DNA from: Psammoneis japonica | Lineage: Eukaryota | NCBI GenBank assembly: GCA_008632985.1 | Contig: QPGO01000047.1 | Coordinates: 326,608 to 390,607, forward strand | Direction: 5' to 3' | Length of the DNA stretch: 64,000 nt | Part shown: piece by piece, positions 18,068 to 60,188 of the stretch | How positions within the stretch are numbered: the stretch's first letter is position 1 | How the letters are laid out: every line of letters starts with the position of its first letter | Translations under genes and position numbers: made by a program | The notes under the pieces: generated by a model | Databases searched by the model: none | Seen by the model: the letters and a program-made list of their open reading frames with translations, nothing else | What the model was told of the DNA's origin: nothing

Positions 18068-18171
18068 GCCAGAAGAGAGTGATCTCCAGCTGAGAGCTGT
18101 GAAAAGAAAGCAAGAAAGAAAAGAGTCACTCTCACGGCGTGTGAGATGTTTTGCTGCTTTGCCTTTTCATC

Positions 18172-23170: not shown

Positions 23171-23215
23171 AAGTGCCTGAGATGGTCAAATTTGGAAATG
23201 ACAAGAATCTTGTCA

Positions 23216-23607
23216 GACGCGTTCCAGGTCTAGAGGTGGGACCTCGTGCTGCTGAACTGTGACATCGACAGTTTTTTGAATCGCGTCGTATGTCGCGCAC
23301 GTAGATTTCTACGTGATTTTTTCGATATTTTGTGTCATTTTACGGTACACTTATTGAGCGATCCGTCCAACATCTTTTGACATTTTTTGTTACAGCGCGA
23401 TTCTATAATGTCTTAAGAATCGCGTAGGGCAGGCGCATTTGCAAAAACGTCGAGTGGTGTGAGGCATAATTGTACCACAAACTTGGCTGTTTATTTGATG
23501 TTGAAGACAAATATATCCATTGATTAAATTCTCGTACTACGGAGCTCGCACGTAGAATTCTACGGGCCCAATGTCACACGGAGTCCCACCTAGGGCTGGA
23601 ACGCGTC
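23216..23607. mobile_element. MITE copy A (392 bp) nested in the Copia 3' region
   Basis: TIR GACGCGTTCCAG...CTGGAACGCGTC (imperfect to ~30 bp). 4-bp TSD GTCA at 23212-23215 and 23608-23611. Reverse orientation relative to 59799-60188. Confidence 0.93.
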
Positions 23608-23631
23608 GTCATTGGTCAGCAGGAGTGTGCA

Positions 23632-23869
23632 TGTTGGAAATGGTGAGTTAAAAGTTCAAACACCAAAATTAGATGGCGTGAAGAAGACGCACGTGTCAGC
23701 GCTTGTGTGCTCTACGTGAAGCAACGAAACAGCCGATGGAAGCAGTCATCATTCTCTTTTGACTCTTAGAAAGTGTTGTGACAACAAGCTTGTCTATTTT
23801 GGCCTCAGGATCAGACCTTGGAGGACTGAGGTGGCTCTGGAACAGTCACCAGAAGGACAAATTACAACA
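23632..23869 (+). repeat. 3' LTR (238 bp)
   Basis: tgttggaaatggtga...aaattacaaca, with TG...CA ends. Confidence 0.95.
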
Positions 23870-23899
23870 GCAGCAAACTTCCAACAAAGGGTCCCATCA

Positions 23900-25450
23900 A
23901 GCATTGCCAAAAAGGGAGCCAAATGGCCCTCGTTGATTCCGGCATTCCTGTCAATCTCATGGCACACGCCGACAAACAATTGGAACGACTTTGCACCCAT
24001 TGTGTCCGTTCTCCTGCTGTGATGGATCATGTTTGTGGTTCTCCATTGGGTCGCAGGATTGTGGCTGAAGACATGGCCAGGATTGAGACATCATTGTTTG
24101 GACATCAGCTGCTTTGACTCCTTTGACCCAAATGACCTCCCAATCTCTCTTTGATGCAAAGTCTTGCCATGTTGTGCATTGATGGTGCCACCGGCATTGA
24201 CAAGCAGGCAATCCTTGGAGCACTGTCCAAAGAGGAAGATCCAAATGGCCCCAGCACCTGGGTTTTTGAAACTGCCTCAGCTGGTCATGTCAAAGACCTC
24301 TGCAAGTGGGAGATGGGTGAGCCCAACAAATTCATGGGGAGTGCAGATCCTGTGTTCATGCAAGAGCGCCAGAGTTGTTGGTGTGTGTGGAAATCAAAAC
24401 CACTGGGTGCACTCTCATCTGTGAGGGCCTTTTTTGGCAATTCTCACTGACGGGTTGACAACATCCAGAAACAGGTCTCCAATGTTGTCTCAGTGCATGT
24501 CTCTGCTGCAGCTGGCAGCTCAGGCTTCTTGGGAGTCTTTCCCAGCTACGACATGCAGTGCAAGAGCAGAAAAAAGCAGCCACGTGGGAGTTTTTGCAGC
24601 AAACTCTTTCCTGGTTTCATGCTCTTGTTCCTGAGTGGTTTGTGGCAGCATTGTCTTTGCTCAAAACAGTCTTGACAGGCCTTTTTGCAACATTTGTTGC
24701 TGACATTTCTCATGCCAAGCTCAAATGCCAAAGAGCTTGCCATCAGGTGCCAAGCTCTCAGCACTTGCAGTGCCATTTGCTCATTGTTTTGCTGCAGCAC
24801 TGGGCCCACAAGAGGCAACATGAGCCATCTCTCTTGAGTTGGGTTGGTCTCTCAGGTGATTGCAAGTTGCCTTGAGGACCTCAACATGGGGTGCTTGGCC
24901 TCCTTGGCTTGCTCAACTTCCTTGTTTGTGTGTCAGCAGGATCATTTCTGCCCCTGACTTCTGAGTTGAATTGCAGTGCTGGGTGCTGTTGGGTTGTCTC
25001 AACAGAGCTCTCTAAAACTCTCCATTTCTGGTTGCAAAACAAAGTGAGTTGACTCTGACCAAGCAGCAATTGTCAAATGTGTGCACAATGCATTGACACC
25101 AACAAAGGTTGCAACATGATGATCAAAATGACCAAAGAAGGACACCTTGACACCTGACACAAGGTGCAGGCTCTGACCACACTTTGCCAAAATGTGATCT
25201 TTGCATGTCCACACACTGGTGCTGAAACAGGTGCACAAGCAAGGCAAAATGCAAGTGCCTGGCAATTTGCCACAACCTTGTTTCAAAGAAACAACCACCC
25301 CTTTTCCACAGCACATGTTGTTTCTCCTGTTGTGGCAGAGGACCCCATTTGTGAACCTCCATTGGGGTTGCAGGCTTTGGCTTGGCTTCTTTGATCCAAA
25401 TGATCTCCCAATGTCTGCAGCTTCAAGTCACAAACTTGACAATGCACACA
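23900..25450 (+). pseudogene. Unidentified eroded coding-like sequence
   Basis: Protein-like fragments with an internally repeated motif (FDPNDLP at ~24122 and ~25390, each preceded by SP..PLG). Family not recognised. Confidence 0.3.
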
Positions 25451-25929
25451 TTTAGAATCCATCCAAGAACTGAGCAGCTTTTGTGCCACTTGTCTCATTT
25501 CTGATGCCGTGGAAAAAAGGAGAGGAGCTCAAGCTCAAGAGAGCAGTGCCCCGCCAAGGACCAGCCAGATGATGTGATGTGTTCACTGAGTCATCAGCAA
25601 AGGAAGCTTTCAAGCATTTGCAGTTCCAGCTCATGGGGGTCAGCAATGTTTTCAAATCATTGTCCTTGGAATTTGCATGGTCCTGGGAGAGAGAGCACTG
25701 GACATTTTGGGTTTCCAGCTCCTCCTGTCCCCATGTGTGCCACACTGCTGGTGCTGCATGCTTGCTCCAGTCCCAAGCAAACAATGCTCTGATTCCAACA
25801 TTCTTTTCAAAATGTCCAGAAATCTGTGGAAAATCTAGAAGGAAAACCAAGCTTGCTGTTCACCAGAATGTCACGCAGGTCGCAAAAAAGCAAAGAAAGA
25901 AAATGTGAGCAGCAGACAGCAGCATTTCT

Positions 25930-26760
25930 GATCTTTTGGCGAGCTCAGAGCTCAAGTGCAGGTTGACTTTTGGTGCCCACGCAGACATCCCTGCAATTCC
26001 AGCTCCTGATTGTGGCATCACGCCACTCAGCGGCTCTTTCGAAACATGCAGCAGGCAGTCTCAAGATTGTTGCAAGCACTTCAAGAGAAATGAGCATGGC
26101 ACAAGACAAGGACAATGTTCTTCCTGCAAGCAGTGTTTGATGCGAGCGTCATCATGAGTGTTCAACACCAGGTTCTGGGTGTTTTCTGCAGCAGGCCCTT
26201 TTTCTCACTTGTCATTTGTGTGCTGTTGGACATCGTGGGAGGATGTTTTTGAGAGATTGTCCAAGATTTTCTTCTTGACAGAAATTTTTCGTGTGTTGTG
26301 GTTGTCAGGAGAGGTGGCACTCAAGCCCAAAGTCACCATTGACCATCCGTGCAAAAAGGGTCACCTCAGTCCTTGCTTTCACGGTGAACACACCCTGAGG
26401 CATTGTCCTTCGGGCAAAGAATGGTGCATTGCCTGCAAGCTTTGTGAGGTGGCCTGTCCCACACAAGCCATTGCAATTGATGCTGAAGAGCATGAGGACG
26501 GAGCTTGTTGTGCAACGTGTTGTGACATTGACGCGACAAAATGCATCTGCTGTGGTTGTGCAAGTCATCACTTCTGATCAGCTTGATTTCTGTGTGATTG
26601 AATTGTTGATCTCACTTTTTAATCACAGTGCCAGGAAGCTTGACCAGTTGATGCGATTGTGCTGGAGGGACCCAACTTCAAATTTGCTGCTGAATTGAGG
26701 GACATCTGAGTGGACTGGTGGGGCAATGGGGTGCAAAAAAGTGACGGACAGATGCGTGCA
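25930..26760 (+). pseudogene. NDUFS8: Complex I TYKY subunit (NDUFS8/NuoI) pseudogene with intron
   Basis: KPKVTIDHPCKKGHLSPCFHGEHTLRHCPSGKEWCIACKLCEVACP...DIDATKCICCGC, then CQEA*PVDAIV..EGPNF after intron 26560-26628. Matches the family pattern [37 protein letters not shown] with Y->C/H and R->C/H/W changes. Confidence 0.95.
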
Positions 26761-28099
26761 TGCTGGGGGCACATGCAGACACCATGGAAGAGTGACTTTT
26801 GGCAACAATTTCCAAAATCTTTGGTCCTGTTCAAAGTTTTGTGTTGTGTGTGTGTTTTGTCAGCAGGGCTGTGCACTCTTCTTCATCAGTGTCTAAACCA
26901 AATGTCTGCAGAGGTGCGCACCATTGATGCACGTTGAATTGGTGATTTGGCACAGATTTTCAACGATCGCGCGTCAGTTGAGACCCAATCAGCACTCATC
27001 ATGTTGACACTCAAATGACAGCTCTTGTCATCTGCACTCAGATGAATGAATGTCCTGCACTCTAAAGAAAAGTTGCGCAGCGGTCTGGGGAGCTGGTCAA
27101 ATCTGACAGCAAAACTGCACGCCCGTCACTTGGAGAGAGTCAATTTTTGTGGAATTTTCAACACCAAAATGCGGCTCACATCTCCTCCTTGGCATCTGTC
27201 ATGATGGGACAAAGGCTTTGTTTGTCATGCAGTGGAGCACAAATGCAACAACTCCTGTTGACCACTTTTTGGAGCTTGTCCTTTGTTTTTTCAAAAAGAG
27301 CCTTGGAATCAAGAAGAGAAATTGCTGTTGACAATGATGCAAGTGTGTGGGCATTTTTGCTCATTTCTTGCCAATTGCAAGCATGTGCTTGCAACAATTG
27401 CTCAATTTGTCGTTGGTCTTGAAAGTTTCATTGTGAAAGAATGTGATTGAGTCACATTGCCATGGCATCAGAGACCGGCGTGCAAAATCCTTGTCGCCAT
27501 TGTCTCATCCACACAGTTCCACACAGTTTTAGCACCAGGCCTGCAGTGATGCATGCGTTTCATGCTTGCTGAAATTGGGCAAAACTTTGTCACTCATTTG
27601 GCGGTGACGTTTCTTCACAAGATTCAGCCCAACCAGCGCAACCAAGACACCACTGGAAAGCTGAGAAAGTCCTCTTTCGATCTGCTGCAATGAAAATGAC
27701 ATGATGACAGTTCTGTGCATGCACACTTCATTCACAAAAAATTCAGCCAAATGTGCATCAATGGCGCACACCTCTGCATGGGTCGAAATGTGTCAAGCCA
27801 AGTCATTCTTCCGAAGTCAGTGACAAAGAGGAAAGTCAACATTTTCTGTTCAAATGACACAACAGTTTTGTGCCAAGAAGTGTGTGATTAAATGTGAAAA
27901 TGTCAATGAAGTGACAATTGCACTTGAGTTGAATGGAGAAAATGCCGGGACAAAAAAATTTTGTCCTGCGGGTGCAGCGCGGAGAAAGCCAATTAGAAAA
28001 TGTCACCACAAAAATTTGGAAGTGGATGATTTTCTCTTTTTAGATGACACTCACTTGCCTCAATGCACAGAGTCACTGCTTCACACAACAAATCCTTTC

Positions 28100-28221
28100 T
28101 GAATTCAAGTCAATGTTTCTGATGACCATCACCTTGTGGAATGCCGGGTGTTTTTTCAACTGAATTCAAATCAATGTTTGTGATGACCACCACCTTGTGG
28201 AACACCGGGTGTTTTTTTAAC
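28100..28221. repeat. 61-bp tandem duplication
   Basis: tgaattcaa.tcaatgttt.tgatgacca.caccttgtggaa(tg/ca)ccgggtgtttttt occurs twice. Confidence 0.9.
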
Positions 28222-28394
28222 TTGCCCCACATTTTTAAATTGATGCTCCCTTCCTGAATTCAATGCAGTGTTTCAGCCACCCATCACCTTGTGCATTTCT
28301 GTGTGCCAATTGTTGGCTTTTTGGAGGAAATTGTTTCCTGCAATGACAACACAACAACAAGCAAGGCAATGGCAAAAGCAATGGCACTGCTTGC

Positions 28395-29790
28395 ATGATG
28401 GCTGCGACACTCAAGGAACAAAAAGGGGCTTTGTGACTGGCCAAAACAAAACAACAGCAGGGGAAATTGTGTTGATGTGTTTGCCATTGCCAGCTGGAGC
28501 TTGGTTGTTTCAGCTCATTGTGTCAAACCAACATGTTGAAAACAGCACAAGCAGCTTGATTGTGCTGGAAGCCACACTCATTCTGTCTCCAATGATGTTG
28601 GCTCAGATGGATTGTTTGCATCTGTGAGGACTCGTGACAGTGGTGCTCAATTTTCTCATTGCACCTTGGCTGTGGTTTGGGCAAGGTCTGGGTGCACCTG
28701 CATGAAGGAGAACAAAAAGCGGCAAACCACTGATCCATTGCCAGTGAGCAGCATGAAGAAGAGTTGTTTGCATTTTTTGACATGCTGTCAATTGAGCATC
28801 CTCTGCTTGACCTTTGTGGCAATTTTGGCTGTGGACTTTCCAGCTTTCCTTCAAAGATTTGCCAAAACAGAGGTTTCAGGATGTGGGCTGATGGATCTGG
28901 ATGCTGGTTTGTTCATGGTGGCTGCCGGCATTGTGTGGGCTTGAGCAAGAAAAAGTGACAAGCAACCAAGCATGGAAATGATTGGAAAAATGCTGCCTCT
29001 TGTGGTCATGGGAAGCACGCGTCTTGTGACAAACATGGCAGTGGAATGCCAGGAGCACACATCCAAGTGTGGCATTCACTGGAATTTCTTCTTCTCTGTT
29101 GTGGCAATGGCACCCCTGGGATCAATGCTGAGTTTGCCAAAGAAGTGGCAGTCTTGCAATTGGGTTCTTGCCTTGGTGACAATGACAATGTGTCAAGTGT
29201 TGCTTTCAAAGTTTGGGCTGTGAGACCACATCATGAGGCACCAAGATCCTGTGTCAAGCCAAATGAAACTGACGTGCTTTGCAGCTTGTTTGCGGCCAAT
29301 CAAGAAGGCATTCTGGGGTGCGTGGGTCACATTGGTGTCTGCATTTTCAGCAAAGATCTGGCTCACTTTTGCTTGTGGGGTGGCCACAGCAAGTCACAAG
29401 GCACTGGGCTTGCGGCATGCTTGGCAGGATTGTGGTTCCTTCACTGCACACTCACGCACATGCTTGACGTCTCTGCATCCCAAAGAATGGCCAATGTCAG
29501 CTGCTGCATGTGGGCCACTGTGAAAACAGCGACAAACAAAACAATGCCGCCCATCTTTGACTCTGTCAACAAGAGCGGGTTGCTGATTTTTGTTGTTGCC
29601 AATCTCTTGATGGGTCTTGTCAATCTCTCTGTCAACATGTTGGAGGCAAGTGATGTCAAGGTGATTTGCATTGTTGTTGCACACCTTGGTGCAGTTGGGG
29701 GATTTGCTCTGTTGGCAGATGGCATCCTTTTGCCTTTTCTGCAGGCCAGCTTTGAACAAAGTCTGCACATCATGAAAAGAAAAAGGTCAA
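28395..29790 (+). pseudogene. PIGW: GPI inositol acyltransferase (PIG-W/GWT1) pseudogene
   Basis: AILAVDFPAFLQRFAKTEVSGCGLMDL, ECQEHTSKCGIHWNFFF (cf. EYQEHxxEYGxHWNFFF), ANQEGILG, SQRMAN, NKSGLLIFVVANLLMGLVN. Stops and frameshifts present. Confidence 0.93.
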
Positions 29791-30149
29791 ATGATGTGAA
29801 TTGGTTTTTGTCATCTCCACACGGAATGCGTGCAACTTGCTTCACTGGAGTTCTTGGACAACATTTGCATGGAAACAAAATTGGCAAGCACAAAGCAAAA
29901 TTGAAAAAAACCAAAGTCCTGAATGGACCCTTCTGACAGACAAGAACTCTCTGCTGAGTCAATGCCACGCCTCTCTTCCACAAGAAAAGCCAAACACCTG
30001 GACTGGAATTGGCTCCCAAGAATTGCCGAGGCATCTCAGGTGCGCAAAGGCATCCATCCCATGGCCTTCAAGAAAAGCAATGAAGAGAAATTGATTGGTT
30101 TTTAAATTGGCGCAAGAATGCTTGCAAACAGAACAGACCACAGAGCAGT

Positions 30150-31550
30150 GTGCACAACAAACAAGAACAGCAGGAATGTCAGATTTGCCATCCATGATCA
30201 TCATGCTCAGGTCACCACCAAAGTGTTGAGTGCAACTCCTTGCAGTGGGCAACCCAAAACCCAAACCTGCCAAAGGAGTGTCAGTGGATTGATCTTGAGA
30301 ACCACCAATCATGTTCTGTTGCACCTTTGCATCTGCTGTTGTAAAGAGACACTTTAAGACTCGTTTGGCTTGTGATCAAGGCATTCCACCATCCTCATTG
30401 GATGCCTTGGTGACAGTGTCTTCATTCTCTGTGTTGTTGGCAATCACAATTGTTGTGGGTGGAAGCTCATCAAGAGTGTTGCTGTGTGTGACCATGGTGG
30501 CCTTCATGGCATTCTCAACAAGCTCCAGCAAAACACAGTGCAAATTTGTTGGAATCCACACACAAAGGTCAAGTCAAGTCTCCCTGCAATGTCAACATCA
30601 AGCGGGGCTTTGCCACATTGTTTCTTGCAAATCATGGTTGCACCACTGGCAGCAATTCACACAATTTCTTTTGGCGAAGTTTTTGGACAAACAGCACCAA
30701 TGCAGTCTGGAATGGGCTCATGTTGCAGTGCCAAATGCTGCCCAGCCAAGACCCGAGTGCCAATCTGACTCGTGTGGAACCAATCCTGAAAGGAGTGCAT
30801 CTCTTGCATCAGATCAAGCTCAAAGATTCTGTCTTCACCACACTTGCCCACCAATTCTCCCTTTGCAACAGCTGCTTGCAATTCAAAAGTGCCCCCAGCC
30901 ATTTCTGCAAGTGCCCTGGAATGTTTTTCATGCAAGGCCTCTGGGTGATTGGCAAAATGAGCTTCATCCTGGACTCACTGAATTTCAGGCCAATGGCTCA
31001 GCTTGTTGAAGGAGTCTGTGTAAATCTGCTTGACTGCCTGAACTGCTGGCATGTTGCTTGTCATGGGGGGCTGGTCTAAATCAGGAATCCCACAAGCAAA
31101 TCAAACTGGATTTTTTTTCTCACAAAGCTTGCCACCAGTGCAATCTTTTTGAAACTGTGCAAAGAAAAGTTGCGGCGCTGCTTCAGCATCACAAAATGAG
31201 TGCATGGCCATCTGCTCTTGTGCAAGCAGTTGTTGCAAAATGGCCAAGTCTTGCTTCAATGTTGCCAATCCTTGGTTTGTCCATCTTTGCCATCCTTTTC
31301 ATCCCAGCTAAAATCTCCTTTTTCTCCCTTCTTCTTTGACTGCAAGCATCTTTTCCATTGAGATGCCATCCTTGCAACTGAGGCTCCAATGTCATCATCA
31401 ACGTGATGATGGTTGTTGGCTGGGTGTTGCTTTGGCAGGAATTCTGTGTTGGGCGTTACAACGGAATCAGATTTCCCGCCAAAATTGAAACTCAAAACTT
31501 TGGATTTTGACAAAACAACATTTTTGGTGATGCGTTCCTCAGTTGCTGAA
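30150..31550 (-). pseudogene. PDK: Mitochondrial pyruvate / branched-chain ketoacid dehydrogenase kinase pseudogene
   Basis: FQDWFHTSQIGTRVLAGQHLAL (cf. FLDRFYxSRIGIRxLxxQ), IPTNLHCVLLELVENAMKAT (N box), SNEDGGMP, PLAGLGFGLPTARSCTQHFGGDL. N-terminal boundary uncertain. Confidence 0.9.
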
Positions 31551-32099
31551 GCACAGCAACAGATTGTGATGAAGTCAATGACTGAACACAGTCAAGGATT
31601 TTGAAATGGTGGCTGTCAGTCTTTAGACACATTTTGAACAGAAAAAAATGTTGCACCCTGCAATGCAGAACACAGTTGAATCTCTTTCTTTGGGATGCAA
31701 AGTGTGTTTTGAATGAAATGTTGGCTGGTGAGTGTGGCTGGTGCGCTGGCACAAGCACACAAGACCCAGCATCATGCTTCACACACCACACAAAAACAAA
31801 GAAGTGCTCATCATTTTGACAAGAGACAAGAGAGGGAGAACAATGACAATGGAAGCAATGTTGCTGGTTGAGATGGAGAGGCAAAGGCTCTGGACTTGAC
31901 AGGCAAGTAAAGACTGGCTGCAGTGCTGAAGAGTGAGCTTCATCTCACATTTTTCTTGCTTGCAACGACAGCAGATTGTGAGCAAAATCCACTCTTTCTT
32001 GCTGCAAAGGCACGCACTGTGCACATCCTCAGTGGCACATTCAATGCTTTTGCTCCTGACTTCTTGGCTCATCCCTTCATTTCTCTTTTCATTTGCTCA

Positions 32100-34830
32100 G
32101 GTTTCAGATCTGTTGCCACTTGCAGCATGCTGTGTTTTCAGAAGAAGGTCGTTGCATCAAGGACATCACAGGCTTGACTTTGGAAGATTTTTTGAAGCTG
32201 TTGGAAGAGAGCAAGGAAGAAGCCACGCAGGAGGCAGTGGGCAAGTTGGCTCAAAATGCTGTTTCAGGGTGCTGGAATCAATTTGGCACTGCATGGCCAA
32301 AGTGCAAGGAATGCATTGGATGCACCACCAAGAAGTCAAGGCTGCATGGCTCCGCTGTTCAGGGACTCTTGTGATGGGAGGGGCAGCAAGTGATGTTCTT
32401 GATGTGCCAAATTGTTTGCCCTTTCCTGTTGCTGACAAATGATGCTTCATTGTTCTTTGTTTAAATGGGCACGGGCAAAGGAATCCAGACTGGCACTGCA
32501 GTTCACAAAAGTTGGCCAATGCTTTGACATGGGAAGCCGGGTTGCTGCTTGCAAGAGTGTGGCTGTGGTCAAGCTGCCATGTCATTTGGCCTTCAGTGGA
32601 AACACAGCTTAAAAATTGGTTCAGATGCAAGCAAAACAAAATGAACAATGGCAATTTATGCGCAAAACATGATGTGGTTAGAAATTGCAGTTGTGGCTCC
32701 CTTTTAACACCAACAAGACAGCATTCAATCTGGGAGAACTGTTGCACTTTAACTGACAGTCAACTGCTTTTCGAGTGGCACTCCTGCTTTGACAGTGGGG
32801 AGCTGAGCAACTTCCTAGATTTGCCACAGTTTGCTCAGTTTGCATGTGAAATTTTGTCTGGCCCTGCTTTCCATTCATGTGTGACATGCTTCTGGGCATG
32901 TGAAAAATCCTGCTTTGCATTTTCCAGAGAGGAGGCCTGACCCAAATGACTGAGGTCCCAGATGCATTGTCGATTCCGGGTCCATGGGGCCTGTCTTGCT
33001 GGCGAACATTTGGATCATTTGTGTTGGCAGCTTCATCTGCACACATGGAATGACAGTGGGCCTTCTTGGCCTCATTGGAGACTTGACAGCATTGATGCTA
33101 AAATGGGACAAAGGCTGATGGGGCAGCCCCGCCTTTCAGTCTCTGGGACAAGTGAGCCACCCTGTCATTTCCGGCATTTTGGGTGCCCTCCCTCAGCTGC
33201 ACTCACTGGTGTTGCATTGGCGGTGGTGTTTTGCACCCTTTGCTCCTTTGTTGGGTGTTTGCAATGTGCTTGTGTGGGGCCAACTGGCTCAGATCTCTCT
33301 CATGTCTCTGGGTGCAGTTTGGGAACTCTTCAGGTGTGCTGCGGGGGTGTGCGCGGATGCACTCCAGCCCTGGGTGGGACTCCGTGAGACATTGGGCCCG
33401 CAGAATTCTACGCGCAAGCTCTGCAGTGTGAGAATTTAATCAATGGATGCACCTGTCTTCAACATCAAATGAACCGCCAAGTTTGTGGTGCAATTGTGCT
33501 GTGCCTCTTGCAACTCAATGTTTTTGCAAATGCGCCTGCCCCACACGATTCTTAAGACATTGTAGAATCGCACTGTGACAAAATGTGTCAAAAGTTGTTG
33601 GATGGATTGCTCAACAAGTGCACCGTGTAAAATGACACAAAATGTCACCAAAATCACGCAGAATTCCACATGCGTGGCATGCAACGAGATTCAAAAAACT
33701 GTCAATGTCACAGTTCAGCAGTGCAAGGTCCCACCTGGACCTGGAACTTGTTTGCATCAGTTGCCACCTCTGCCAGATCTGCTTTTGGATGCTGCTCCAG
33801 GGATTGAGGTGTTGCACCAGATTTTTCTTTCCTTGTGGTGGCACTGGGATGGGGGGTCCTTGCCATTGTTCTGATGGCAGCCAACCAAGGAACAGCAGTT
33901 GGGGGCACATGATGGAGCACTTGTCTTTGTCAAAGGCACATTGCCACGAAACTCCAGACAACAATGCATTCATGCCCCCCCAAAAAATTGGCCACATGGC
34001 TGAAAAACTTCAGAAAGTTTGCAACCATTGATGCACTCAGCCAGGTGAGGTGATCAGCCTTGCTGATTGCTTTTGGGTCCCCAAGGCAGCGCGTTTTGAA
34101 CCACAAGACAGCAAACTGTTGGAGGCAGTGGAGGACATTGGTGTGGTGTGCAATGGCACCTCCTCTGGGCCAAATGGGCCCTGTGGGCCCCTTCCTTCTT
34201 TTTGCCCACTGCTTCCTCCATGCTTGGGTGTGTGACAGAATCCACATTTTCTGTCAACCTTGATTTGGGCAATGTGGTTTTAAACTTCTTCATGAACCCT
34301 AAAATTTGGCCTTGCGCAGGGGCTCATCTCAAGGTGGCAGGTCAGGAGCACTTGACTGGGCTGTTCATGGGAATGAGACCAAGTCCTTGCCTTGCCATCC
34401 AGGTGTGTCACTGGGCTGACAAAGCAGCCCACGGGATCCTCTTCGGAAGTCAAACCCCATGGGGTTTGTTTCGAAGCCCCAGGCAATGAAGTGTAACTCT
34501 CACACAAGAGCCACAGTGGGAGATGTCAAAACCTTTGCTGATTGTCTTTGGCATTGGGGTTCAGAGCAAGGAGAACGCATGGCAAGCAGCACATCAAATG
34601 GCTGCTGGTCTGCAGCATTTTGGTTCACAGAATGCCCCGTGCAAGCTCAGCCCTCCATCCCAATGTGAGACAGGAGCTTGGGTGGGCGGCATCTTCAGGG
34701 TCACAGACAAGAAGGTAGTTCAGACAATTGCACAGGCCAAGTGGGACAAGGGAAAGAGAATGGCTTCTGAGCTGCTCTCGAAGCACAAAAACCAACCGGA
34801 AGGGTTCCTGCCCTCATTCAACTTCTATGA
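32100..34830 (+). mobile_element. DIRS/Ngaro-like retrotransposon RT remnant, hypermutated, interrupted by MITE copy C
   Basis: WWHWDGGSLPLF, DCFWVPK..DIGVVCNGTSSG, LWAPSFFLPT, NLDLGNVVLNF, LFMGMRPSPC, GDVKTFAD, LQHFGSQNAPCK..GAWVGGIF..KWDKGK. Family assignment is from recalled motifs; left boundary uncertain. Confidence 0.75.
33356..33752. mobile_element. MITE copy C, heavily mutated
   Basis: Colinear with 59799-60188. Eroded TIRs gatgcactccag / ctggaacttgtt. Flanks cgcg and tgca are compatible with an eroded 4-bp TSD. Confidence 0.9.
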
Positions 34831-38858: not shown

Positions 38859-41049
38859 GATGCGGTTGAAAGAGACCACTGCTTATTGTGCAGTTCACCT
38901 GTTCAGAAATCTTTAAACTTGTGCTTTGTGTTGCTTCCAAGTTCATGTGACGAAATGATACGCATGAAGTGGCTTTGTGCGTCGCAAATCATTCTTGTTT
39001 GTGGTGATTGGTCTTGAAACTTGAAATTTCTATTTAAAGCCACTCCAATACCAATTCTGATTCCTTGAAGATCTTGATTTGATGAAAATTGTAGGATCCA
39101 TACGTGTTGCTCTTGCAAGCACTCGTATTGCATTATCCCGATTGTGTGGTAACAAGAAAAATGTGAGCGTCCAATGAAAAAGTGAACTCAACGGTCGACC
39201 GATAAAAACGGAGGATGTCACGTGATCAATTTTAGTTTATATTTTTGTATACATTTAATGTTCAATCCGACAAAGCACTGCAATTAGAAGTGTCTCTTGT
39301 GCAAACAGGCAGCGCGGTGCAGAAGGAACGGCAACAGTTGTTCAGTGTTAACAGCATGCTTCCTCATTTGTTCAATTGAGTTGTCGTGCATCTTGCCATT
39401 GTCCAGTGCCAGAGACACGCAGAATCGTGCGCACTGTGCAAAGTGCCAAAAAAAGGTGTGCAGTTTGGGGTTTGGGATTGCGCAATGAGCCTGTGCCTGG
39501 ATCGAGGCACGTGCTGGACTCAAGGGCACACGCGTGCGCAACGAGAAATCTTTCTCTTCTTGTGTGACAAAAAAAAAGAGGTGGCATTGGCCTTTGCGTC
39601 AACCGTGGGATTAACGCCAATCGCATCAGATCCAGGTTCCCCCCCTTTTCATGGGCCGCATGCAGTCCAAGAAATGCACTTGCCTCCCATTTTCATGGGG
39701 GCCGCATGAGGCCCACACAAGTCATGCAAGCTCACCTGAGGAGACAGATGCTGCAAATTTCCAAGAGGGAGAGTGACAAGAGTTGACTTTCCAAGTCATT
39801 GGTTTCTGAGTCGATGACATGGGTTGGTCACGTGCGGGAACACACCCTCTTTGTGAGTCACTTTTTCGGGTCATTTGTTGAACCTTTGTCTGGTCCACTT
39901 GCAAATGCATGGAATTTGGCACTGAGTTGACACCTTTGGTCCCTTGAGATCTTTTGGGTCACTTTTGAGGCTCTCTTCTCCTCTCTCTCACTTCTTGTGG
40001 ATTTTCATGTTCGCCAGGATCACGAGCACTTGAGCCGTTGACACATGTCTGCTTCAGACAGTTGTTGTTGCCCCAGCTTGTGCTGTCATCTAGCTCATTT
40101 CCATGGAAAGCAGTCACATGGCACAGCAAAAGCAAATGGACAAGCCACCAAGGACAAAAAAGTTGTTGTTGTTTGTTGCCCCATTGTTCGCCAAGCAGGC
40201 AGCCCTCTGGAGGCAGCTGGGCAGCCAAGCAAACACACCATCATGGATGGCAGCAAGTGTGAGCACATGACCAGGCTGGGGCATCTTGCTTGGACTCTGC
40301 TGCAGGGCATCTGTCTTGCTTGGACTCTGCTCTGGGGCACCTTGCTTGGACTGGACAACTGGCCATTGTCCGAGCCCATTTTTTGACCAGCGAGCACCTG
40401 GTTTCGTGGCTGAACAACTCCAGCTGGCCCAGAAGCCAATGCCCATGGCAGCGTGTGTGCTCCTGGCAAGGCCTGTCTCTCCTGCTTGGGCTCCCAAGGC
40501 CAAGGTTGCTGACAATGAGCTGCTCAGCAAGGATGGGCTGTTGCCACACAAACAGCATGAGGTGCCCTGCCTCGTGATGTGAATGAAGACGATCCTCTTG
40601 CAGGCAAGTGAGAGCATCTGTTGTCAGAGGCTGTTTCTTTTCTGTTGAAGGTGCACTGTCCTGCACTCACAAATCTTTTCTGCTGCGGCCATTTGCTCTG
40701 AGCATCGCCAGCTTGCCTTGACACACACCCTGAGGCACCCGGCCTTGTGATCAAGTGCACTGCAGTGGGTCTTGAAGATGCTCTTTGCTGCTCCCTCAAG
40801 CATGTCACACAGCTCAATTCAGGCAAGTCTGGGTCATTGTTGCAAGTGCGGCAGAGGGCCATGTGCTTCCAAGCATGGTTGAAAAACTCATGCCATGGCC
40901 AACACTCCAGAATGTGTGACTGTCATGGTGCTGTCCACATCGCTCTCTCTTGCCAAATCAGAGAAAAAGTCCATCAGACTTTGCACCAAAGCACCCAAAA
41001 TGATGAACAGCACACTTTGTTCTGGGTGAAACAGAGCCAAAGAAATGCT

Positions 41050-41340
41050 GGAGACAGTGGGCAATTGCCATTTTTTTTTTGCGATGTCTTGCTTGCTGAG
41101 CGGTGTGCAGTGTCGTTGTGCAAGGGATGATTCCTGCAGTGCAGGGACAGCTGGACAATGTGACCAAGTTGCGCACTCTCAACTCAACTTGTCATCCAAT
41201 GACTTTTCTGGATTGTTCATCCCAACAGAGTTTGCCAATCTTTTGAATCTAGACAAGCTCATGTTGCACATGAATCAGATTGAGGGATCACACCTGCAAA
41301 ATTGGAAAAGACTCAAAAAGCTGCACAAGTGTGCTGACAG
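41050..41340 (+). pseudogene. Leucine-rich-repeat gene fragment
   Basis: GVQCRC then QLNLSSNDFSGLFIPTEFANLLNLDKLMLHMNQIEGS, fitting the plant-type LRR consensus LxLxxNxLxGxIP. Confidence 0.75.
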
Positions 41341-41669
41341 CTGACACATGACATTGCTTTCATGACACGGCCACCACTCACTCATTTGCTTGTTCCACCC
41401 ACTTGCGCTGTTGGGCCATTCCACTGGCTGTGTTTTCCATTGAAAAGAACATGTCACTTGGCACATCAAATTCAGATTTTTGTGATCTGATGCCGCGATG
41501 ATCTGCGATCTGTTCCTTTTTGCCCACAACATCTCAGTTTTTGCCACTCAGGCAGAGCCTCATTCTGTCACACAGAAAAGGCACAACACACAGCCACAAG
41601 GCCCAAACACAACTCTCAGCAGCTCACGCTGGCTGCACTTTACACAGTGTTGGCAATGCACTGTGTTGG

Positions 41670-43475
41670 AGCCAACCAAAATGCTCAAGAATTCTTTTGA
41701 CATTTGAGTTAAAGCAGTTGTGACTCAAGGCCAAAATTTTCACTTCAGAGCCAATCAAAATGCTCAGATTTTCCACTCAAAAAATCAGCTCAGAGCAAAA
41801 ATTCTTGCATCAGAGCCAACAAATGCTCAGATTTCCTGCTCAAAGAATTCTTGGGAAATTTGAGTTAAAACAGCAGCAACTCAGATCCAATTTTTTTCAT
41901 CAGAGCCAGCAGCCAGTCAAAAAGTCTGGGTTGTCTGCTCAAAAAAATTTGTGACACTTGGGTCAAAACAACTCTGATGTTCCACCTCTTGGTTGACATC
42001 TCTGGTGCAAGGGGTGATGCACTGTCCAAGGTTTGCAGCGCACACAGGTGTTTGTGCTCACTGCAGCCAGGATGGGTGTCAACGTCGTGGCCATGATGCA
42101 GCCCGCCTCCCTTGGCATTGCATTGACTTGGGCTGTGAAGTGGCAGGAGAGTGTGCCACTGCAACCAAAATGTTCATCATTGAGGTCAGCCAGATCATCT
42201 GCTCAAGAAATCTTTCAACATTTGAGGAGCCAAGACAGCTGCAGCTTGGATCTAAATTTTTTTGCATCAGAGCCAATCAAAATGCTCAGATTTTTCACTC
42301 AAGAAATCTTGCAACATTTGAGCTAAAACAGCCACAACTCAGAGCCAAAATTTTCACATCAGAGCCAATGAAAATGGTGTTTGGACTTTCCACTCAAGAA
42401 ATCTTGTGATGTTTGAGTTAAAACAGCTGCAGCTCAGAGCCAAAATTTTTGCATGAGAGCCAATCTAAATGCTCAGATTTTTTGTTCAAGAAATCTTGCA
42501 ACATTTGAGTTAAAGCAACTGCAGCTTAGAGCAACAATTTTTTTGTCAGATTCAATCAAAATGCTTGGACTTTGTGCTCACAAAATCATGCTGCATTGAG
42601 CTGGAACAGTTGCAAATCTTGCAACATTTGAGCCAAAGCAGCTGTGATGGACTTGGAGCCAAAATTTTCACATCAGAGGAGCCAACCAAAAGATTGCCCA
42701 GATTTTCTGCTCAACAACAAATCTTGCAAACATTTGAGTCAAAGCAGTTGTCATTGGCTCAGAGCCAAATTTTTCACATCAGTGCCGACCAAATCATGCC
42801 CAGATTTTCTGCTCAGCAAATCTTGCAACATTTGAGTTAAAACCATTGCAGCTCAGAGCCAAAGTTTTTGCCACACATTGAGTTGAAACAGCCGCAGCTC
42901 AGAGCCAAATTGTTTGCATCAGAGCCAATCAAAATGCTGGAACTTTCCACTTCAAGCATTTTTGCAATGTTGGAGTTAAAAAGAAGTTGTGACTCAGAAC
43001 CAAAATTCTCTAAAATGCTCAGATTTCCCAGTCAAGAAATCCTGCAACATTTGGGTTAAACAACTGCAGCTCAGATCCAAAAATTTTGCCACACATTTGA
43101 GTTGAAGCAGCTGCAGCTCAGATCCAAAAATTTTGCCTCAGAGCCTTTTGCTCAAAACCTCTTTGAACATTTGAGTTAAAGCAGAAATCTTGTGAGTTGA
43201 CAAAACAGCTCCAGCTCAGAGCCAAAATTTTTGACACACATTTGAGTTAAACCGGCTGCAGCTCAGAGCCAAAATTTTTGCATCAGAGCCAATCAAATTG
43301 CTTGAACTTTCTGCTCAAGAATTTTCGTGATGTTTGAGTTAAAGCAGCTGTGATTCACAGCCAGAATTTTCACATCAGAGCCAACAAAAATGCTTGGCTT
43401 TTCCATTCAAGAAATCTCATGACATTTGAGTTGAAAAAACTGCAGCTCAGAGCCAAAATTTTTGCCACACATGTG
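41670..43475. repeat. Degenerate ~92-bp minisatellite
   Basis: Unit catttgagttaaaacagctgcagctcagagccaaaattttt.catcagagccaatcaaaatgctcagatttt...ctcaagaaatcttgcaa, with starts e.g. at 42315, 42410 and 42502. Interrupted at about 41960-42160. Confidence 0.9.
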
Positions 43476-44177
43476 AGTTGTGGAGTTGTGACTGGCACAA
43501 TGTAAGGAGCTGCCAAAAATGTCCCAAACCCATCACAGCATGTGTTGCACATGGATGTTTGATGACAATGGCTTTTGTGCACATTTTGGCTCAAGTGTGG
43601 CTGCAGCATGTCAGCAAGTTGGCCACTGATTTTTTCCCCAAGAAGTGGGAGCAGAATCTGTTTCTTGAGGCTGGAGGCAGCTGGCACTTGTTTTTGCTGG
43701 GGACAACAAACAATGCTGCCAAAATCCCCACTCTGAGCATGTGTCAAAGACTCAATGAGATGGCAAAAGAGAAAGGCACTTGGGACACTCCTGCTGTGCT
43801 CATGTCATGATCAAATCAATTGATGAGCCAGCTGGCAGCTGGCGGCACATTGTCTGAGCAGATTTCTGTGCCATGACTGCTGCAAAAAAAGCAAAGCAAA
43901 GCCAAAACAGCACCTGACAGTGGCTTTGCTGATTGTGTTTGATGATGTCATCTTGGAAAGCAGTGCACAGCATGGCAAGCACAAAAGCAGCCACATTTGC
44001 TCATGGCCTTTTGCTCTGTTGGCTCCCTGCACTCTCTTCGTTGGACAAACTGTTGAGCAACTGGGCCAAGACACAAAAACAGTTGTCAGCCCAGGCTGGT
44101 GAGAAGACAATTTTTTGAGGCACTTTTGTTGTGCTTTTTCCAGCTGTGCTTTTTCAATGGATGCTGCACCCCCCCCC

Positions 44178-44286
44178 NNNNNNNNNNNNNNNNNNNNNNN
44201 NNNNNNNNNNNNNNNNNNNNNNNNNNNNNNNNNNNNNNNNNNNNNNNNNNNNNNNNNNNNNNNNNNNNNNNNNNNNNNNNNNNNNN
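44178..44286. other. Assembly gap
   Basis: Run of N flanked by poly-C and poly-T. Confidence 1.
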
Positions 44287-46331
44287 TTTTTTTGTTTTTT
44301 TTTGTGTTGCCAGGAAAGATGACGAGATGTGCCATGCAGCCTTTGCAAAATTGCTTGCAAAACTTTGGGCCATCATCTGGGCACTTGACTGGGCCAGCTT
44401 CCTTGTGGCAAGCAAACACTTTGAAGGGCAAAGACAGACCCCAGCTTTTGTGCTGCCAACTGACATTGAGAGAGTCCACCCAATGTCCAGAGAAAAGGAG
44501 TGCAGCTTTTCCTGCTTGGGGCTCAAGCAACTCTGCTGTGCCAAAGAACAAAAAATCTGGCAGCAACCCATGCCTGCAAAGCAGCCACAATGTGCACCCA
44601 TTGCAAACGCAGGAGCCATGGCAACCTTTGCTCTCAGAGACAGGCACAGCTGAGTGCTGTGCTTTGGACATGCCTCTTCATGGCAACCCCCATGCAAAAT
44701 CTGAGTCAGCAATCAGCACAACCGCAGCATTGTGACAAAACTGCTGAGAGTGCTGGATTTGACCTTTGTGGCTGCCTTGTTGCAGCAGAAGAACTCAGCT
44801 TTGGCACCACAGTTTGCAGATGTGAAAGCCCCAGCCACGGGGTCTGAATCACAGAAACTTCTGGTGGAAGGCATCAAAGCCTCCCACACCAATGCCAGTC
44901 TTGTTGCCAAACTGGCTGGTCATTTCAGGCATCCTGAACCATGCCTGAAGCAGCTCCACCCACTGGGGTTCCCATCAGACAACAAAAAGAGAGGCGGGCC
45001 ATGCTGTCACAATTGATCTCTTGCAAAGCTCAGCCAGTGCAAGGTCCAAGGAGACTTTGAGGTGGCTGGCAATGCCACACCAACATGCCTCTCATGGCTT
45101 CATTGCTTTGTGGCACTGACAAACAACGCACGCTCATTGTGGGGTGCCAAGAGCAAAGATTTTCCAAAAGCAAAGCTGTTTTGACTGCCATTTGGTTGCC
45201 ACCACAAGCAACAAACTCAGATGTGAGCATTTTCTGTGCTTGTCCAGTGCCCCAAAGTTGCACAGCCATGATTTCCAAGGTGCTGTGTGACCATTGTCTT
45301 GAAGCACCCAACACCTCTGGGGGCCCATCCTTCCCTTGCTGCTGCCAGCACACTCAAGAGAGTTGTGCTGGCTTTGAGAAATGGAGGCCATCAGCAACAC
45401 CATTTGAGGGTCTTGCCTGGGCATGCTGCCAAATCGTTGCCCACATGTTGATGGCACTCATGTTGTGTGGGTCAACTGGCCCAAATGCTGTTGTGCACAG
45501 ACACTTTTTTTGAAGACTCTGTCACATTTCCAGCCTCAGCACCGGGCTTGGACAAAGCTGCCCAAAAAGCAAGAAGCGCAGCATCTCGCCACTCATCTTT
45601 GTGAAAGCACAGCTTGCGTCAAAGACAAGCAGCTCATGCTGCTCCAAAAAGAGCAAGCGGAGACTGTCAAAAATGACTCACAATGCAAAATGAACAAAGC
45701 TGCTGAGGGATGTCTGTGGGGCCCACACATTTGTTTGTGCCAGAGCTGCTTTTTTCTCACAGCTTGTGCAAAATGGGCTTGGCTGTCAAATGTGTTGATC
45801 AAAAATGTGCCCAGTCAGATGACAGCCAAGCCCATTTTTCACAAGAACAAAACCCACAAGCATCGCAGGCAGGCTGATGGTGGACAATTTGACAGCTGTG
45901 TTGGCGCCGTTGCTCTGCACACAGTTTCTGCCTGGTGACTCCTCTCTGGCACCAGTGACAGAGGTGTCAGCAGGAGCCAGGAGCATCATCCAAAAAAGCA
46001 ACATTTGGGCAGCAGATGCTCTTCTCTGCATAGAGAGATGACATTTCCCGGTTGCAGCGCACTGACCAAGCGTGTTCAAGACCCCCCAAAATTCGAAATT
46101 CGTCTCGAGAGCTTTGAACCATCAATCGGTCATTCCAGAATGACTTTGAAAACCAATTTTCCAATCGGCATAAATAATTTGATGACCAGAATGGTTATCA
46201 AATGACCCATGAAACAGTCATTTCGTTTTCCCCTCCCTCTCATCAAACAATCGTCACACACACACTTTGTTCGAAAACAAGAAGAGTCGTTAGGCACTTG
46301 CCCAACAGATATTGTTACGAGCAGCAGCTCA

Positions 46332-57732: not shown

Positions 57733-58247
57733 TGTTGTTGCTTTACGTAGGAGAACTTCACCTCATTTGCTGTTGTCTCTCTGAAGTCGATGATTTCTCA
57801 CAGCGTGGAGGTGATTGTGTGTGAATCGAGTTCCGAGTGGAGGGCTACGTAGGGATTTGTACCAAAAGATATGTACATGTAACATGGTAATGATTCTACG
57901 TCAGGGGCATTGCACATACAATTCCAACGTACGTTGTACGGAGTGTACACATTCAATCTTTATTCAGTGCTTAGGACGATATAAAGAACACACATACAAC
58001 ATATAAATGCATAGACATAACATTTCAAAAGATTGTCTGTAGGTTCGCTCACATGGGGTTCGCTGCGGTTGTTCAAATGATAATGCTGTAATGCTAACCC
58101 TCTCTTGCTTGTGCCTAAGTCGCCTCTCCCAGGGCAAGGTAAATCACCTATGAAACATTATGAAAGCAATAATGAGAAATTCCCACTTGTTTAGTGTGAG
58201 TTTCTCTCCCTAGATAAAGGAAACACCCCCCGCTTATTCCACATTTC

Positions 58248-58874
58248 CTAAACAAACCACCCACGAACTGACAACAGCCTTTCAGTAAACAGTTGAAGAA
58301 ACCACAGCTTGTGATGAAAAAGATCTTGTTCCATCATGAATCCCGAATTGGCAATTGTCAATAGAACCAGTGTCAATGTACCCATTGCAACTCGAACTCT
58401 AAAAACAACAATTGCATATTGTGTGAACATCCGACTCTTCTCTTGCCGAGCTGACGGAAGCTTTGCTTTGGACTCTCGCTTTATTCTTGTAATGATGATT
58501 TGAAGAAGTTCTTGCTGAACATAAAGAAACACTTGAGAAAAAATGATATCGACAATGGCAGAGACGACGTCTAGATTCGGTTGACCGTTCGTAGCACTGA
58601 CATTGTTGGAAGGCAGCGTCAGTAGTATCCAAGTAGAATAGATCCCCATCAATACCCGTCCCGTACCAGTGATCGTGACAAATAACAAGAAAAATGGTAA
58701 CAGTTTTTGAATAGTGGAGCTCGAAAAGAACCGTCGTCGTCGTGCTACTCTCCGCTTACGCCTAACCTTTCGCTTTCTTGGACTATTGTCATGTTTCGTG
58801 TCGTCGACAATAGGGTTTTCTTGTTCGTGTACACCATGATGATGATGACGATGGCGAACGTTGCTTTGCATCAT
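58248..58874 (-). CDS. Hypothetical membrane protein (possibly partial or disrupted)
   Basis: Basic N-terminal stretch followed by a hydrophobic segment; no recognisable domain. Confidence 0.3.
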   Translation of the reverse strand: MMQSNVRHRHHHHGVHEQENPIVDDTKHDNSPRKRKVRRKRRVARRRRFFSSSTIQKLLPFFLLFVTITGTGRVLMGIYSTWILLTLPSNNVSATNGQPNLDVVSAIVDIIFSQVFLYVQQELLQIIITRIKRESKAKLPSARQEKSRMFTQYAIVVFRVRVAMGTLTLVLLTIANSGFMMEQDLFHHKLWFLQLFTERLLSVRGWFV

Positions 58875-59163
58875 GCATGTAGTGACAAGCGATACGACGG
58901 TCTTCAAGTGTGCGCAAAAGAGAGCGAGGAGATGGGAACGCGGCCGAGATTTTGCAAAGTGCCGCTGCGTGCCGTCAAAAAAGAAAAAAGTGAGGCGGGT
59001 CATCGGGTCATTGCATCGGTCATTCTGGATTCGTCAGCAGTTTCCCGCCAAAACGAAAAAATGAGCGAAAGACACTGACGCATGAATTTGACGACCAACC
59101 CTCCTGCTAAATACGGTTACAACCCGCACAGCAAAGCTCATTGCAGTAGTAGCACTACTGGCC

Positions 59164-59484
59164 ATGCCACTAACACAAGTAAACGCCTCAAGTGTTCCTT
59201 CAGAATCAGTGTCTCCAAAATGTGCTGGACTCTGCGATGCGCTCACAAAGAAAAAGAAGCAAATCAAGCTGCAGGACACCGGAAGCTCCAAGAATAACGC
59301 GCTTGTAGAGTTTCTCAAGTGCAAGTCCAAGGCATCCAAAACCTGCAAAGAACAAGAAAAAGAGCGCACGTTGTGTTACAAAAGCTTTGTGGGAACCGGC
59401 TCGCACAAGGGACAGAGGCATTGTGGCGAACCGCTGGGAGACTTGTGCACATGTGCACTTGAGTCTCTTGAAAAAAGGGAATGA
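59164..59484 (+). CDS. Twin Cx9C small protein, probably partly hypermutated
   Basis: CKEQEKERTLC and CGEPLGDLCTC both have Cx9C spacing. Region is TpA-poor. Confidence 0.55.
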   Translation: MPLTQVNASSVPSESVSPKCAGLCDALTKKKKQIKLQDTGSSKNNALVEFLKCKSKASKTCKEQEKERTLCYKSFVGTGSHKGQRHCGEPLGDLCTCALESLEKRE

Positions 59485-59798
59485 GTAGAGCAGGTTGCAA
59501 GTGTGTCAGTGCTTTTGGCTTTGGCGGTTTGGATTCTCGTTGCAAAGAAGGCAGATGAACCCTGAACTGAATTGCCTTTTTCATCAAAGTTTTTGTTGGA
59601 ACGAGAAGATGCAGAATTGTTCAAGGTTGATGCGCCGCTGGGCAGCAATGCGCAGTTCTTTGTTGCGCTCCCTCCTAAAACCTGCTTTTGATCGAGTGAG
59701 GCCCTCCAATGTACTTTGGAAAGAGACGTCTCCTCATGTCGGACATGTTCGATGCAGAACAAAAGCAAGTCCATTTGCCGTGCACACTCATTCCAGGA

Positions 59799-60188
59799 GA
59801 CGCGTTCCAGCCCTGGGTGGGACTCCGTGTGACATTGGGCCCGTAGAATTCTACGTGCGAGCTCCGTATTACGAGAATTTAATTAATGGATATATTTATC
59901 TTCAACATCAAATAAACGGCCAAGTTTGTGGTACAATTATGCCTCTTACCACTCGACGTTTTTGCAACTTCGCCTGCCCTACGCGATTCTTAAGACATTG
60001 TAGAATCGCGCTGTAACAAAAAATGTCAAAAGTTGTTGGACGGATCGCTCAATAAGTGTACCGTAAAATGACACAAAATGTCGAAAAAATCACGTAGAAA
60101 TCTACGTGCGCGACATACGACGAGACTCAAAAAACTGTCGATGTCACAGTTCAGTAGTACGAGGTCCCACCTAGACCTGGAACGCGTC
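59799..60188. mobile_element. MITE copy B (390 bp), near-pristine
   Basis: TIR GACGCGTTCCAG / CTGGAACGCGTC. TSD AGGA at 59795-59798 and 60189-60192. Confidence 0.95.

Follow-up and report, generated by a model that had tools for sequence, protein, structure and literature searches.

Hypermutation of TpA dinucleotides was described by Mettrop et al. in integrated viral DNA of the chlorarachniophyte Bigelowiella natans (10.64898/2026.01.13.699255). According to the main text of this preprint, 230 of the 231 mutations found in two viral regions of mutation-accumulation lines were A>G or T>C changes at TpA, 124 clusters were depleted in TpA and enriched in CpA+TpG, and transposon domains were enriched among the depleted genes; its authors propose TadA/ADAT-like adenine deamination at TpA (10.64898/2026.01.13.699255). 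Our search of the literature on TpA hypermutation, DNA adenine deaminases, and defence in diatoms and dinoflagellates returned only this preprint as relevant, and natural genomic A-to-G editing as a defence is thus represented in the searched literature by a single report, in one preprint and one species. Here we describe a 64-kb window of DNA, that is, the whole stretch that was analyzed and to which all coordinates refer. It carries three copies (A, B, and C) of a miniature inverted-repeat transposable element (MITE), a Ty1/Copia element with its pair of long terminal repeats (LTRs), and several blocks converted to different degrees (Table 1). The conversion of TpA in this DNA is transition-only, strand-symmetric, context-dependent, and domain-restricted, and it took place after integration. 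We consider it likely that a regional, DNA-level mutation process turns TpA into TpG or CpA in silent domains, with CpG being lost later or more slowly. The whole analysis rests on this one window.

A blastn search within the window revealed one element in three copies of 390-397 bp, and no further ones, in agreement with a sequence-only reading of this DNA. The element has terminal inverted repeats, 4-bp target duplications, a small size, and a high copy number, the characteristics of a MITE. Copy A lies in the orientation opposite to B and C in the window alignment. In copies A and B, the 5' end GACGCGTTCCAG and the 3' end CTGGAACGCGTC are exact reverse complements, the inverted ends being perfect over 12 nt and imperfect over about 25 further bases. 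Copy A is flanked by the 4-bp target duplication GTCA (23212-23215 and 23608-23611) and copy B by AGGA (59795-59798 and 60189-60192). Two contigs of sequencing run X1 span the flanks of B without the element, skipping 394 (with 5 ambiguous letters) and 395 bases, which fixes the insertion boundaries. The sequence-only reading had described A and B as TA- and CG-rich copies with intact ends and duplications, and this description held for both (rho values in Table 1). In copy C, the two ends were mutated differently and no longer match, and the target duplication has decayed via two CG changes to CGCG (33352-55) and TGCA (33753-56).

Copies A and B were 95-96% identical, and C was 84% identical to either. 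The three-way alignment, which the earlier reading had called for, contained 72 variable columns, of which 51 were private to C, 9 to A, and 8 to B, the remaining 4 being three-way. Measured against the state common to A and B, 16 of 21 TA sites were changed in C (8 to CA, 8 to TG), as were 19 of 28 CG sites (10 to CA, 8 to TG, 1 to CT), compared to 15 of the 276 other positions (9 transitions, 6 transversions). The difference was significant for both dinucleotides (Fisher test, p = 4e-14 for TA and 1e-14 for CG). These counts support the claim that C was systematically converted, except for two of the six examples quoted for it. In aattaatgg, the TA is private to B and copy A likewise reads aatcaatgg; in cagtagtacgagg, B alone has the first TA, and the base C stands there in copy A, copy C, and 86% of the family read depth.

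The direction of change had been fixed by the agreement of two copies. This rooting did not stand, because A and B are close relatives and their agreement cannot root three sequences; the direction itself, TA to TG/CA, is shown independently by Tyr codons compared with outgroups, LTR differences, TG/CA doublets between paralogues, site 60158-59, and family variants. For the Tyr codons, the reverse-transcriptase open reading frame (ORF) of the Copia element was aligned with 27 homologues (P0001-15, P0017-25, P0056, P0060, and P0061, from the 120 listed), and a column was taken as conserved Tyr if at least 60% of the 27 carried Tyr. Of the 14 such columns, 9 read Cys (TGY) in the window, 4 read His (CAY), and one reads Thr, and Y>C and Y>H were the two most frequent among the 75 mismatches at the 296 conserved columns of this ORF. 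The GWT1 pseudogene in converted block 2 has His, Cys, and His at columns with Tyr in 5, 4, and 5 of five homologues. Tyr was absent from both the Copia ORF and GWT1 (Table 1), compared to 1.8-3.9% of residues in normal-block ORFs. Site 60158-59 shows three states, TA in B, CA in A, and TG in C, and across the family a single TA can be replaced by CA or by TG; at 59891-94, each of the two accounts for 30-40% of depth.

Paralogous repeats in converted DNA revealed the same pattern. TG-versus-CA doublets, which are expected if an ancestral TA or CG was converted independently in each copy, numbered 5 between the copies of a 460-bp duplication (10943-11612, block 1), 4-5 per pair among three 217-bp tandem repeats (60519-61169), and 6 in one pair of 92-bp repeats, with 0 in a second, 88-bp pair. 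Of the four repeat families compared, three carried them (4-6 per pair), and other adjacent double transitions between paralogues numbered 0-1. The opposite course, in which a process like repeat-induced point mutation (RIP) changed CA/TG to TA in A and B while C kept the ancestral state, has next to no probability in our judgement. Three sequences alone cannot root the split, and one B-private change is CA>TA (60155); however, such a course needs CA/TG>CG at 18 sites, for which there is no known process, and it is contradicted by the outgroup proteins, which give ancestral Tyr at 13 of the 14 codons. It also has to contend with inverted ends that match in A and B and not in C, and with whole blocks almost without TA.

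The LTR pair of the Copia element dates the changes relative to integration. The two LTRs are 94% identical, and the element has an RVT_2 match (E = 1e-7), as in Ty1/Copia. Its ORF had 407 homologues at E <= 1e-5, among which PF07727 was present in all but one of those listed; all named homologues came from the diatoms Nitzschia inconspicua and Epithemia. Over 17846-18069, the LTRs differ at 13 positions, namely 11 TA versus TG/CA, 1 CG versus TG, and 1 transversion, and the TA is retained in the 5' LTR at 9 of the 11 and in the 3' LTR at 2. Since LTRs are identical at integration and these now differ at 11 TA sites, the changes arose after integration. The 5' LTR retains 13 TA within about 225 bp, and the TA density drops at ~18057, the inner edge of this LTR.

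These data also bear on ADAR-like A-to-I editing at the RNA level, fixed by reverse transcription. Copia is a retroelement, and ADARs prefer an A that is preceded by U, according to the preprint (10.64898/2026.01.13.699255). Nevertheless, this explanation is very improbable, since the LTR differences at 11 TA sites arose after integration, and since a DNA transposon, flanks, tandem repeats, and a continuous 11-kb block were all converted. The outcome was strand-symmetric as well, with 8 each of CA and TG in copy C, and 1139 CA compared to 1262 TG in block 2. ADAR-type RNA editing of retroelements was rejected as a candidate on the LTR divergence at TA and the converted DNA transposon with its flanks. 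The post-integration LTR differences and the converted MITE with its flanks agree with the sequence-only reading, which had argued from the non-coding element that no RNA intermediate is required.

The window is a mosaic of converted and normal blocks (Table 1). TpA was depleted about 12-fold in the converted blocks, and CpA+TpG was enriched. In block 2, the excess of CA+TG (about 84/kb) nearly equals the deficit of TA+CG (about 81/kb), and the similar numbers of CA and TG indicate that both strands were affected. Of the 64 one-kb windows, 22 passed the footprint cut-offs of the B. natans preprint (rho TA <= 0.43 and rho CA+TG >= 1.52 in 1-kb windows), and these were clustered in runs of 2 to 10 windows. 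Block edges were sharp, with the change occurring within 100-300 bp. The converted targets comprised Copia, the MITE, the GWT1 pseudogene, tandem repeats, and unannotated DNA. Fungal RIP was rejected as a candidate on the TpA depletion, the CpA+TpG enrichment, and the direction TA>TG/CA.

We further considered a uniform genome-wide bias without targeting, in which TA and CG are hypermutable everywhere and the blocks differ in age or in selection on genes. The normal blocks do overlap long ORFs, namely a guanylate-cyclase-domain gene, a GT10 fucosyltransferase gene, and two ORFs of 1955 and 953 residues; even in these blocks rho TA lies at 0.45-0.9; and the copies are orderable by age alone. 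However, the inter-ORF segments of normal blocks keep 23-84 TA/kb (at least 41 in 11 of 13), and within genes of these blocks TA is frequent across codon boundaries. Spacers next to genes are spared, so coding selection is not the explanation of the pattern. Moreover, in the one Copia element, whose parts are of the same age, 13 of 14 interior Tyr codons were converted compared to 2 of 15 TA sites in the 5' LTR (p = 2e-5). Together with the sharp boundaries, this makes a uniform bias unlikely.

Table 1. Features of the 64-kb window and their TA and CG status
Feature	Coordinates	Strand	Description
MITE copy A	23216..23607	-	unconverted; rho TA 0.83, rho CG 1.51
MITE copy B	59799..60188	+	nearly unconverted; rho TA 0.88, rho CG 1.55
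MITE copy C	33356..33752	+	converted; both inverted ends mutated
Copia 5' LTR	17831..18069	+	largely unconverted; 13 TA, 8 CG
Copia internal region	18070..23215	+	converted; TA 7.6/kb, CG 28.5/kb
Copia reverse-transcriptase ORF	20952-22640	+	no Tyr in 563 residues
Copia 3' LTR	23633..23871	+	partly converted; 6 TA, 7 CG
Converted block 1	10593..12877	.	TA 3.5/kb, CG 11.8/kb; holds 460-bp duplication
Converted block 2	23900..34700	.	TA 3.5/kb, CG 12.8/kb, CA+TG 222/kb; holds MITE C and GWT1 pseudogene
Converted block 3	39350..46030	.	TA 3.0/kb, CG 10.8/kb; 92-bp tandem repeats; ends just before fucosyltransferase gene
Converted blocks 1-3 together			TA 3.0-3.5/kb, CG 11-13/kb, CA+TG 214-222/kb
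Early-stage block around MITE B	59201..61900	.	TA depleted (6-10/kb), CG mildly reduced (36-39/kb)
Normal blocks	1-10592, 12878-17830, 34826-39349, 46031-59200		TA 32-44/kb, CG 55-61/kb, CA+TG 138-150/kb
GWT1 (PIG-W) pseudogene	28540..29933	+	two frames; 0 Tyr in 459 residues; inside block 2

The variation of the MITE family was examined on copy B, to which 3048 pieces of X1 contigs aligned at >= 80% identity. By identity, 491 of these fell at 99% or more, 793 at 95-99%, 1134 at 90-95%, and 630 below 90%. The summed word depth was 1e5 to 5.8e5 over the element compared to 300-800 in the flanks, a measure that is not a calibrated copy number. Transitions accounted for 54 of the 73 variant places on copy B. 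The 35 variants listed inside the element comprised 18 TA>CA/TG, 3 CG>CA, 4 other transitions, and 10 transversions, with 42 further variants beyond these. The marine metagenome runs X5 and X6 gave 1 and 5 short pieces on the element, mostly below 95% identity, and degenerate element patterns revealed no outside copies (0 loci) in two scans of metagenomes and one of viral contigs. The depth over copy B peaked in its first ~60 bases (59799-59866), and 45 X1 contigs exit the element at 59865/59866 into different shared sequence, indicating that this terminal region recurs in one or more further repeat families.

These family data bear on whether C might have arisen by transposition of a diverged master in which the TG/CA states were already present. 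The sequence-only reading had named membership of C in a subfamily sharing these states as the observation that would overturn it. Many C states are indeed common in the family, at 24-68% of depth (59844 T>C, 35%; 59933 A>G, 55%; 59939 A>G, 68%); this part of the objection stands, on the marginal frequencies of the family. However, the same conversions extend over more than 10 kb of the flanks of C and into its target duplication, and the mutated, mismatched ends of C make it a poor transposition substrate. In addition, one and the same TA occurs as CA or as TG across the family, variants also affect at least 5 TA sites that C has kept, and the 3048 pieces grade continuously in identity. Taken together, a subfamily origin appears improbable to us, and conversion of C in place is preferred.

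All three copies sit in TA-depleted DNA, with C in the most converted block; the flanks of B hold 10 and 6 TA/kb, with CG near normal, and A is embedded in the converted Copia, with 25 bp between it and the 3' LTR downstream. The intact state of A and B amid edited DNA shows that they arrived after their surroundings had been edited, as young islands; for A, this later insertion into the mutated Copia had already been proposed from the sequence. Copy C was converted along with its flanks and target duplication, which indicates that blocks of 2-11 kb, and not elements, are the unit.

TA loss precedes CG loss across these elements. In the 3' LTR, 9 TA and 1 CG were changed. Relative to the density of normal blocks, about 25% of TA and about 66% of CG were left in the surroundings of MITE B, 19% and 49% in the Copia interior, 24% and 32% in MITE C, and 8% and 21% in the old blocks. 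The ratio of TA to CG loss thus varies, as would be expected if the TA step is fast or episodic and a slower, clock-like CpG decay comes after it.

The survival of TA depended on sequence context. We compared TA in converted relative to normal blocks for each tetranucleotide. Survival was 0.00 for ATAT, ATAC/GTAT, GTAC, and ATAG/CTAT, 0.01 for ATAA/TTAT, 0.04 for CTAC/GTAG, 0.10 for GTAA/TTAC, 0.14 for CTAG, and 0.29 for CTAA/TTAG, and it reached 0.84 for TTAA. TTAA made up 28 of the 66 surviving TA in converted DNA compared to 56 of 1286 in normal DNA (p = 9e-19), which was true of all three blocks, and both TTAA sites of MITE C survive. R-T-A-Y sites were thus lost first and TTAA was nearly spared. 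The values fit additive preferences for a purine at position -2 and a pyrimidine at position +1 relative to the edited A. In Copia, which is less saturated, the context order was similar, but TTAA survived at 0.35 and CTAG best, at 0.79. CpG survival in converted blocks was 0.53 for GCGC and 0.39 for CCGC compared to 0.08 for TCGA and 0.06 for CCGA; this bias to G/C flanks indicates that CpG loss is context-dependent too.

We propose the following sequence of events. Within certain domains of 2-11 kb, which contain transposons, tandem repeats, and a pseudogene, almost all TpA would be turned by transitions into TpG or CpA on either strand, and CpG into TpG/CpA later or more slowly, with genes and the adjacent non-coding spacers being spared. 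Copy C would have been converted in situ together with its flanks, and A and B would have inserted into DNA already converted, by a process that may be episodic or slow relative to MITE activity. The TpA step may consist of enzymatic adenine deamination on DNA, with A changed to inosine and read as G, possibly by a TadA/ADAT-like deaminase aimed at silenced chromatin, as proposed in the preprint for B. natans. The CpG step would be ordinary deamination of 5-methylcytosine in silenced, methylated domains. We treat the two steps as separate processes, because the TA:CG ratio varies between elements, because the target base lies on opposite sides of the dinucleotide, and because 230 of 231 mutations in the two viral regions of B. 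natans were TpA transitions, with none reported at CpG in the main text of the preprint.

A different chemistry may be considered for the TpA step, in which the T of TpA is modified, for example by hydroxylation to 5-hydroxymethyluracil (5hmU), known from dinoflagellates, and mispairs with G, so that the primary event is T>C. 5hmU prefers TpA. It is reported to be linked to transposon silencing in dinoflagellates (PNAS 2024, PMC11572971), and T>C on one strand is indistinguishable by sequence from A>G on the other. However, the nearest named homologues are diatoms, and the dinoflagellate spliced-leader motif had 0 matches at <= 3 mismatches in the window, which is weak evidence. We judge this chemistry to be rather unlikely and retain adenine deamination as the preferred candidate.

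Several points weigh against the process proposed here. The evidence comes from one 64-kb window. The LTR asymmetry of 9 versus 2 is weak by itself (binomial p = 0.065), and it is conceivable that the Copia interior derives from a copied source that was itself already converted. The family data are marginal frequencies, and a converted source copy might equally give the common states of C. The unconverted state of A and B in converted DNA excludes a continuous process, and an episodic one must be assumed. The CpG loss seen here may be unrelated, since the B. natans data, as given in the preprint, are without a CpG component. The putative deaminase draws on the hypothesis of that preprint and on an enzyme preference. 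TadA-type enzymes favour U/T before the target A.

Other features of the window were examined. The GWT1 homologue lies in two frames without Tyr and is thus a pseudogene; it is a host-type gene within a converted block, with a named homologue in the diatom Fistulifera solaris. A Pfam scan of 64 ORFs of the converted blocks outside Copia (from 10700-12800, 23900-34600, 39500-46000, and 60300-61600) revealed GWT1, a short Fer4 match (26158-26574), and one sub-threshold WRC match, and Pfam recognised no viral genes among these ORFs of the four blocks. The loss of TA removes TAA and TAG stops, which results in many overlapping ORFs in converted DNA; these were of 110-325 residues, in several frames and on both strands, and gene callers could mistake them for genes. 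Converted block 3 contains an assembly gap of 109 N (44178-44286) and ~92-bp tandem arrays (41668-43500), in which most 92-bp units retain TTAA. Copies in the 92-bp and 217-bp arrays differ mostly by TG-versus-CA doublets.

In the normal blocks, the closest match of the fucosyltransferase was 57% identical. A search of the protein atlas returned, for one gene, fucosyltransferase clusters made up mainly of animal sequences and nothing else, and a second ORF gave no usable hit. The unconverted region 35175-38882 (-) holds an ORF of 1235 residues with ~40 tandem 24-bp (8-codon) repeats at 36349-37296 and a strong GC skew. The ORFs of 1955 and 953 residues overlap each other at 48941-57441 (-), and their length without interruption suggests an intron-poor genome. 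None of these three ORFs had a match in Pfam, and Rfam and tRNA scans of the window found nothing.

As a second instance, probably from another lineage, the window would contribute clean controls of its own, since it contains an LTR pair, paralogous repeats, and one MITE in both old and young copies. It would also add evidence of action on transposons and pseudogenes, in place on DNA and ahead of CpG decay, and of a sequence grammar that spares TTAA, to what is known of TpA editing. For biochemists, it offers a motif with which candidate deaminases can be tested; for genome annotators, an explanation of Tyr-free pseudo-proteins with few stop codons; and for evolutionary biologists, a mirror-image counterpart to fungal RIP. 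As a tentative proposal, for which we would claim somewhat less than even chances, a diatom-like marine protist, only distantly related to chlorarachniophytes, runs a programmed, chromatin-domain-directed DNA-editing defence, with R-T-A-Y edited first, TTAA immune, and CpG decay following, and such "anti-RIP" TpA editing is widespread in marine protists. If this were true, TpA editing would be a widespread genome defence of marine protists, beyond one alga, and high-copy MITEs would be built-in clocks for the times at which domains were edited.

Among known systems, fungal RIP shares with this locus a DNA-level, transition-only, and dinucleotide-specific action, blocks with sharp edges, intact young insertions, and the ruin of transposons and duplicated genes. 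However, RIP makes TpA from CpA/TpG and raises AT, whereas TpA is destroyed and CpA/TpG made here, and, unlike in duplication-triggered RIP, one LTR of a pair was spared. Methyl-CpG decay is known from CpG loss in ageing Alu and L1 copies. It resembles the present case in CG>TG/CA changes in transposons that are age-graded and yield both derivatives at one site across a family; C with 19 of 28 CG changed, the blocks with 11-13 compared to 55-61 CG/kb, and the graded series show age-graded decay of CpG to TpG/CpA. It covers only the CG half, whereas the TA loss here is as strong or stronger, and earlier. Hypermutation by ADAR or APOBEC likewise directs deaminase-type transitions with a neighbour-base preference against selfish elements, but it acts on RNA or single-stranded intermediates and is strand-biased, in contrast to the strand-symmetric, post-integration changes found here, which hit a DNA transposon and its flanks.

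The closest likeness is to B. natans as described in the main text of the preprint, and the window appears to be a second instance of this type of TpA hypermutation, probably in another lineage. Both show TpA>TpG and TpA>CpA transitions on both strands in confined regions, and the footprint of TpA depletion with CpA+TpG enrichment, which here passes the published cut-offs, is common to both. Reverse-transcriptase and transposase domains are enriched among the depleted genes of B. natans, a Copia and a MITE are among the targets here, and the process was episodic there, in some lines only, as is implied here by the untouched copies A and B. The source organism probably differs. All named homologues here come from diatoms, and the 57% identity of the best fucosyltransferase match, with the B. 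natans proteome being public, and the very long ORFs without interruption speak against B. natans; we regard this species as improbable, and a diatom or a close relative as likely. Unlike the giant-virus and virophage inserts of B. natans, the targets here are Copia, a MITE, a host pseudogene, and tandem repeats. CpG is depleted here too, whereas "CpG" occurs 0 times in the main text of the preprint. TpA is near saturation of loss here, at 3 TA/kb, unlike in the viral region of B. natans (3.3% TpA), and a footprint was read from sequence instead of mutations observed in real time. TTAA immunity and the R-T-A-Y preference were found here, and the main text of the preprint contains no extended motif and no MITEs. 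Relative to that text, the proof of in-place action from an LTR pair, the order of TA before CG, and the immunity of TTAA are new.

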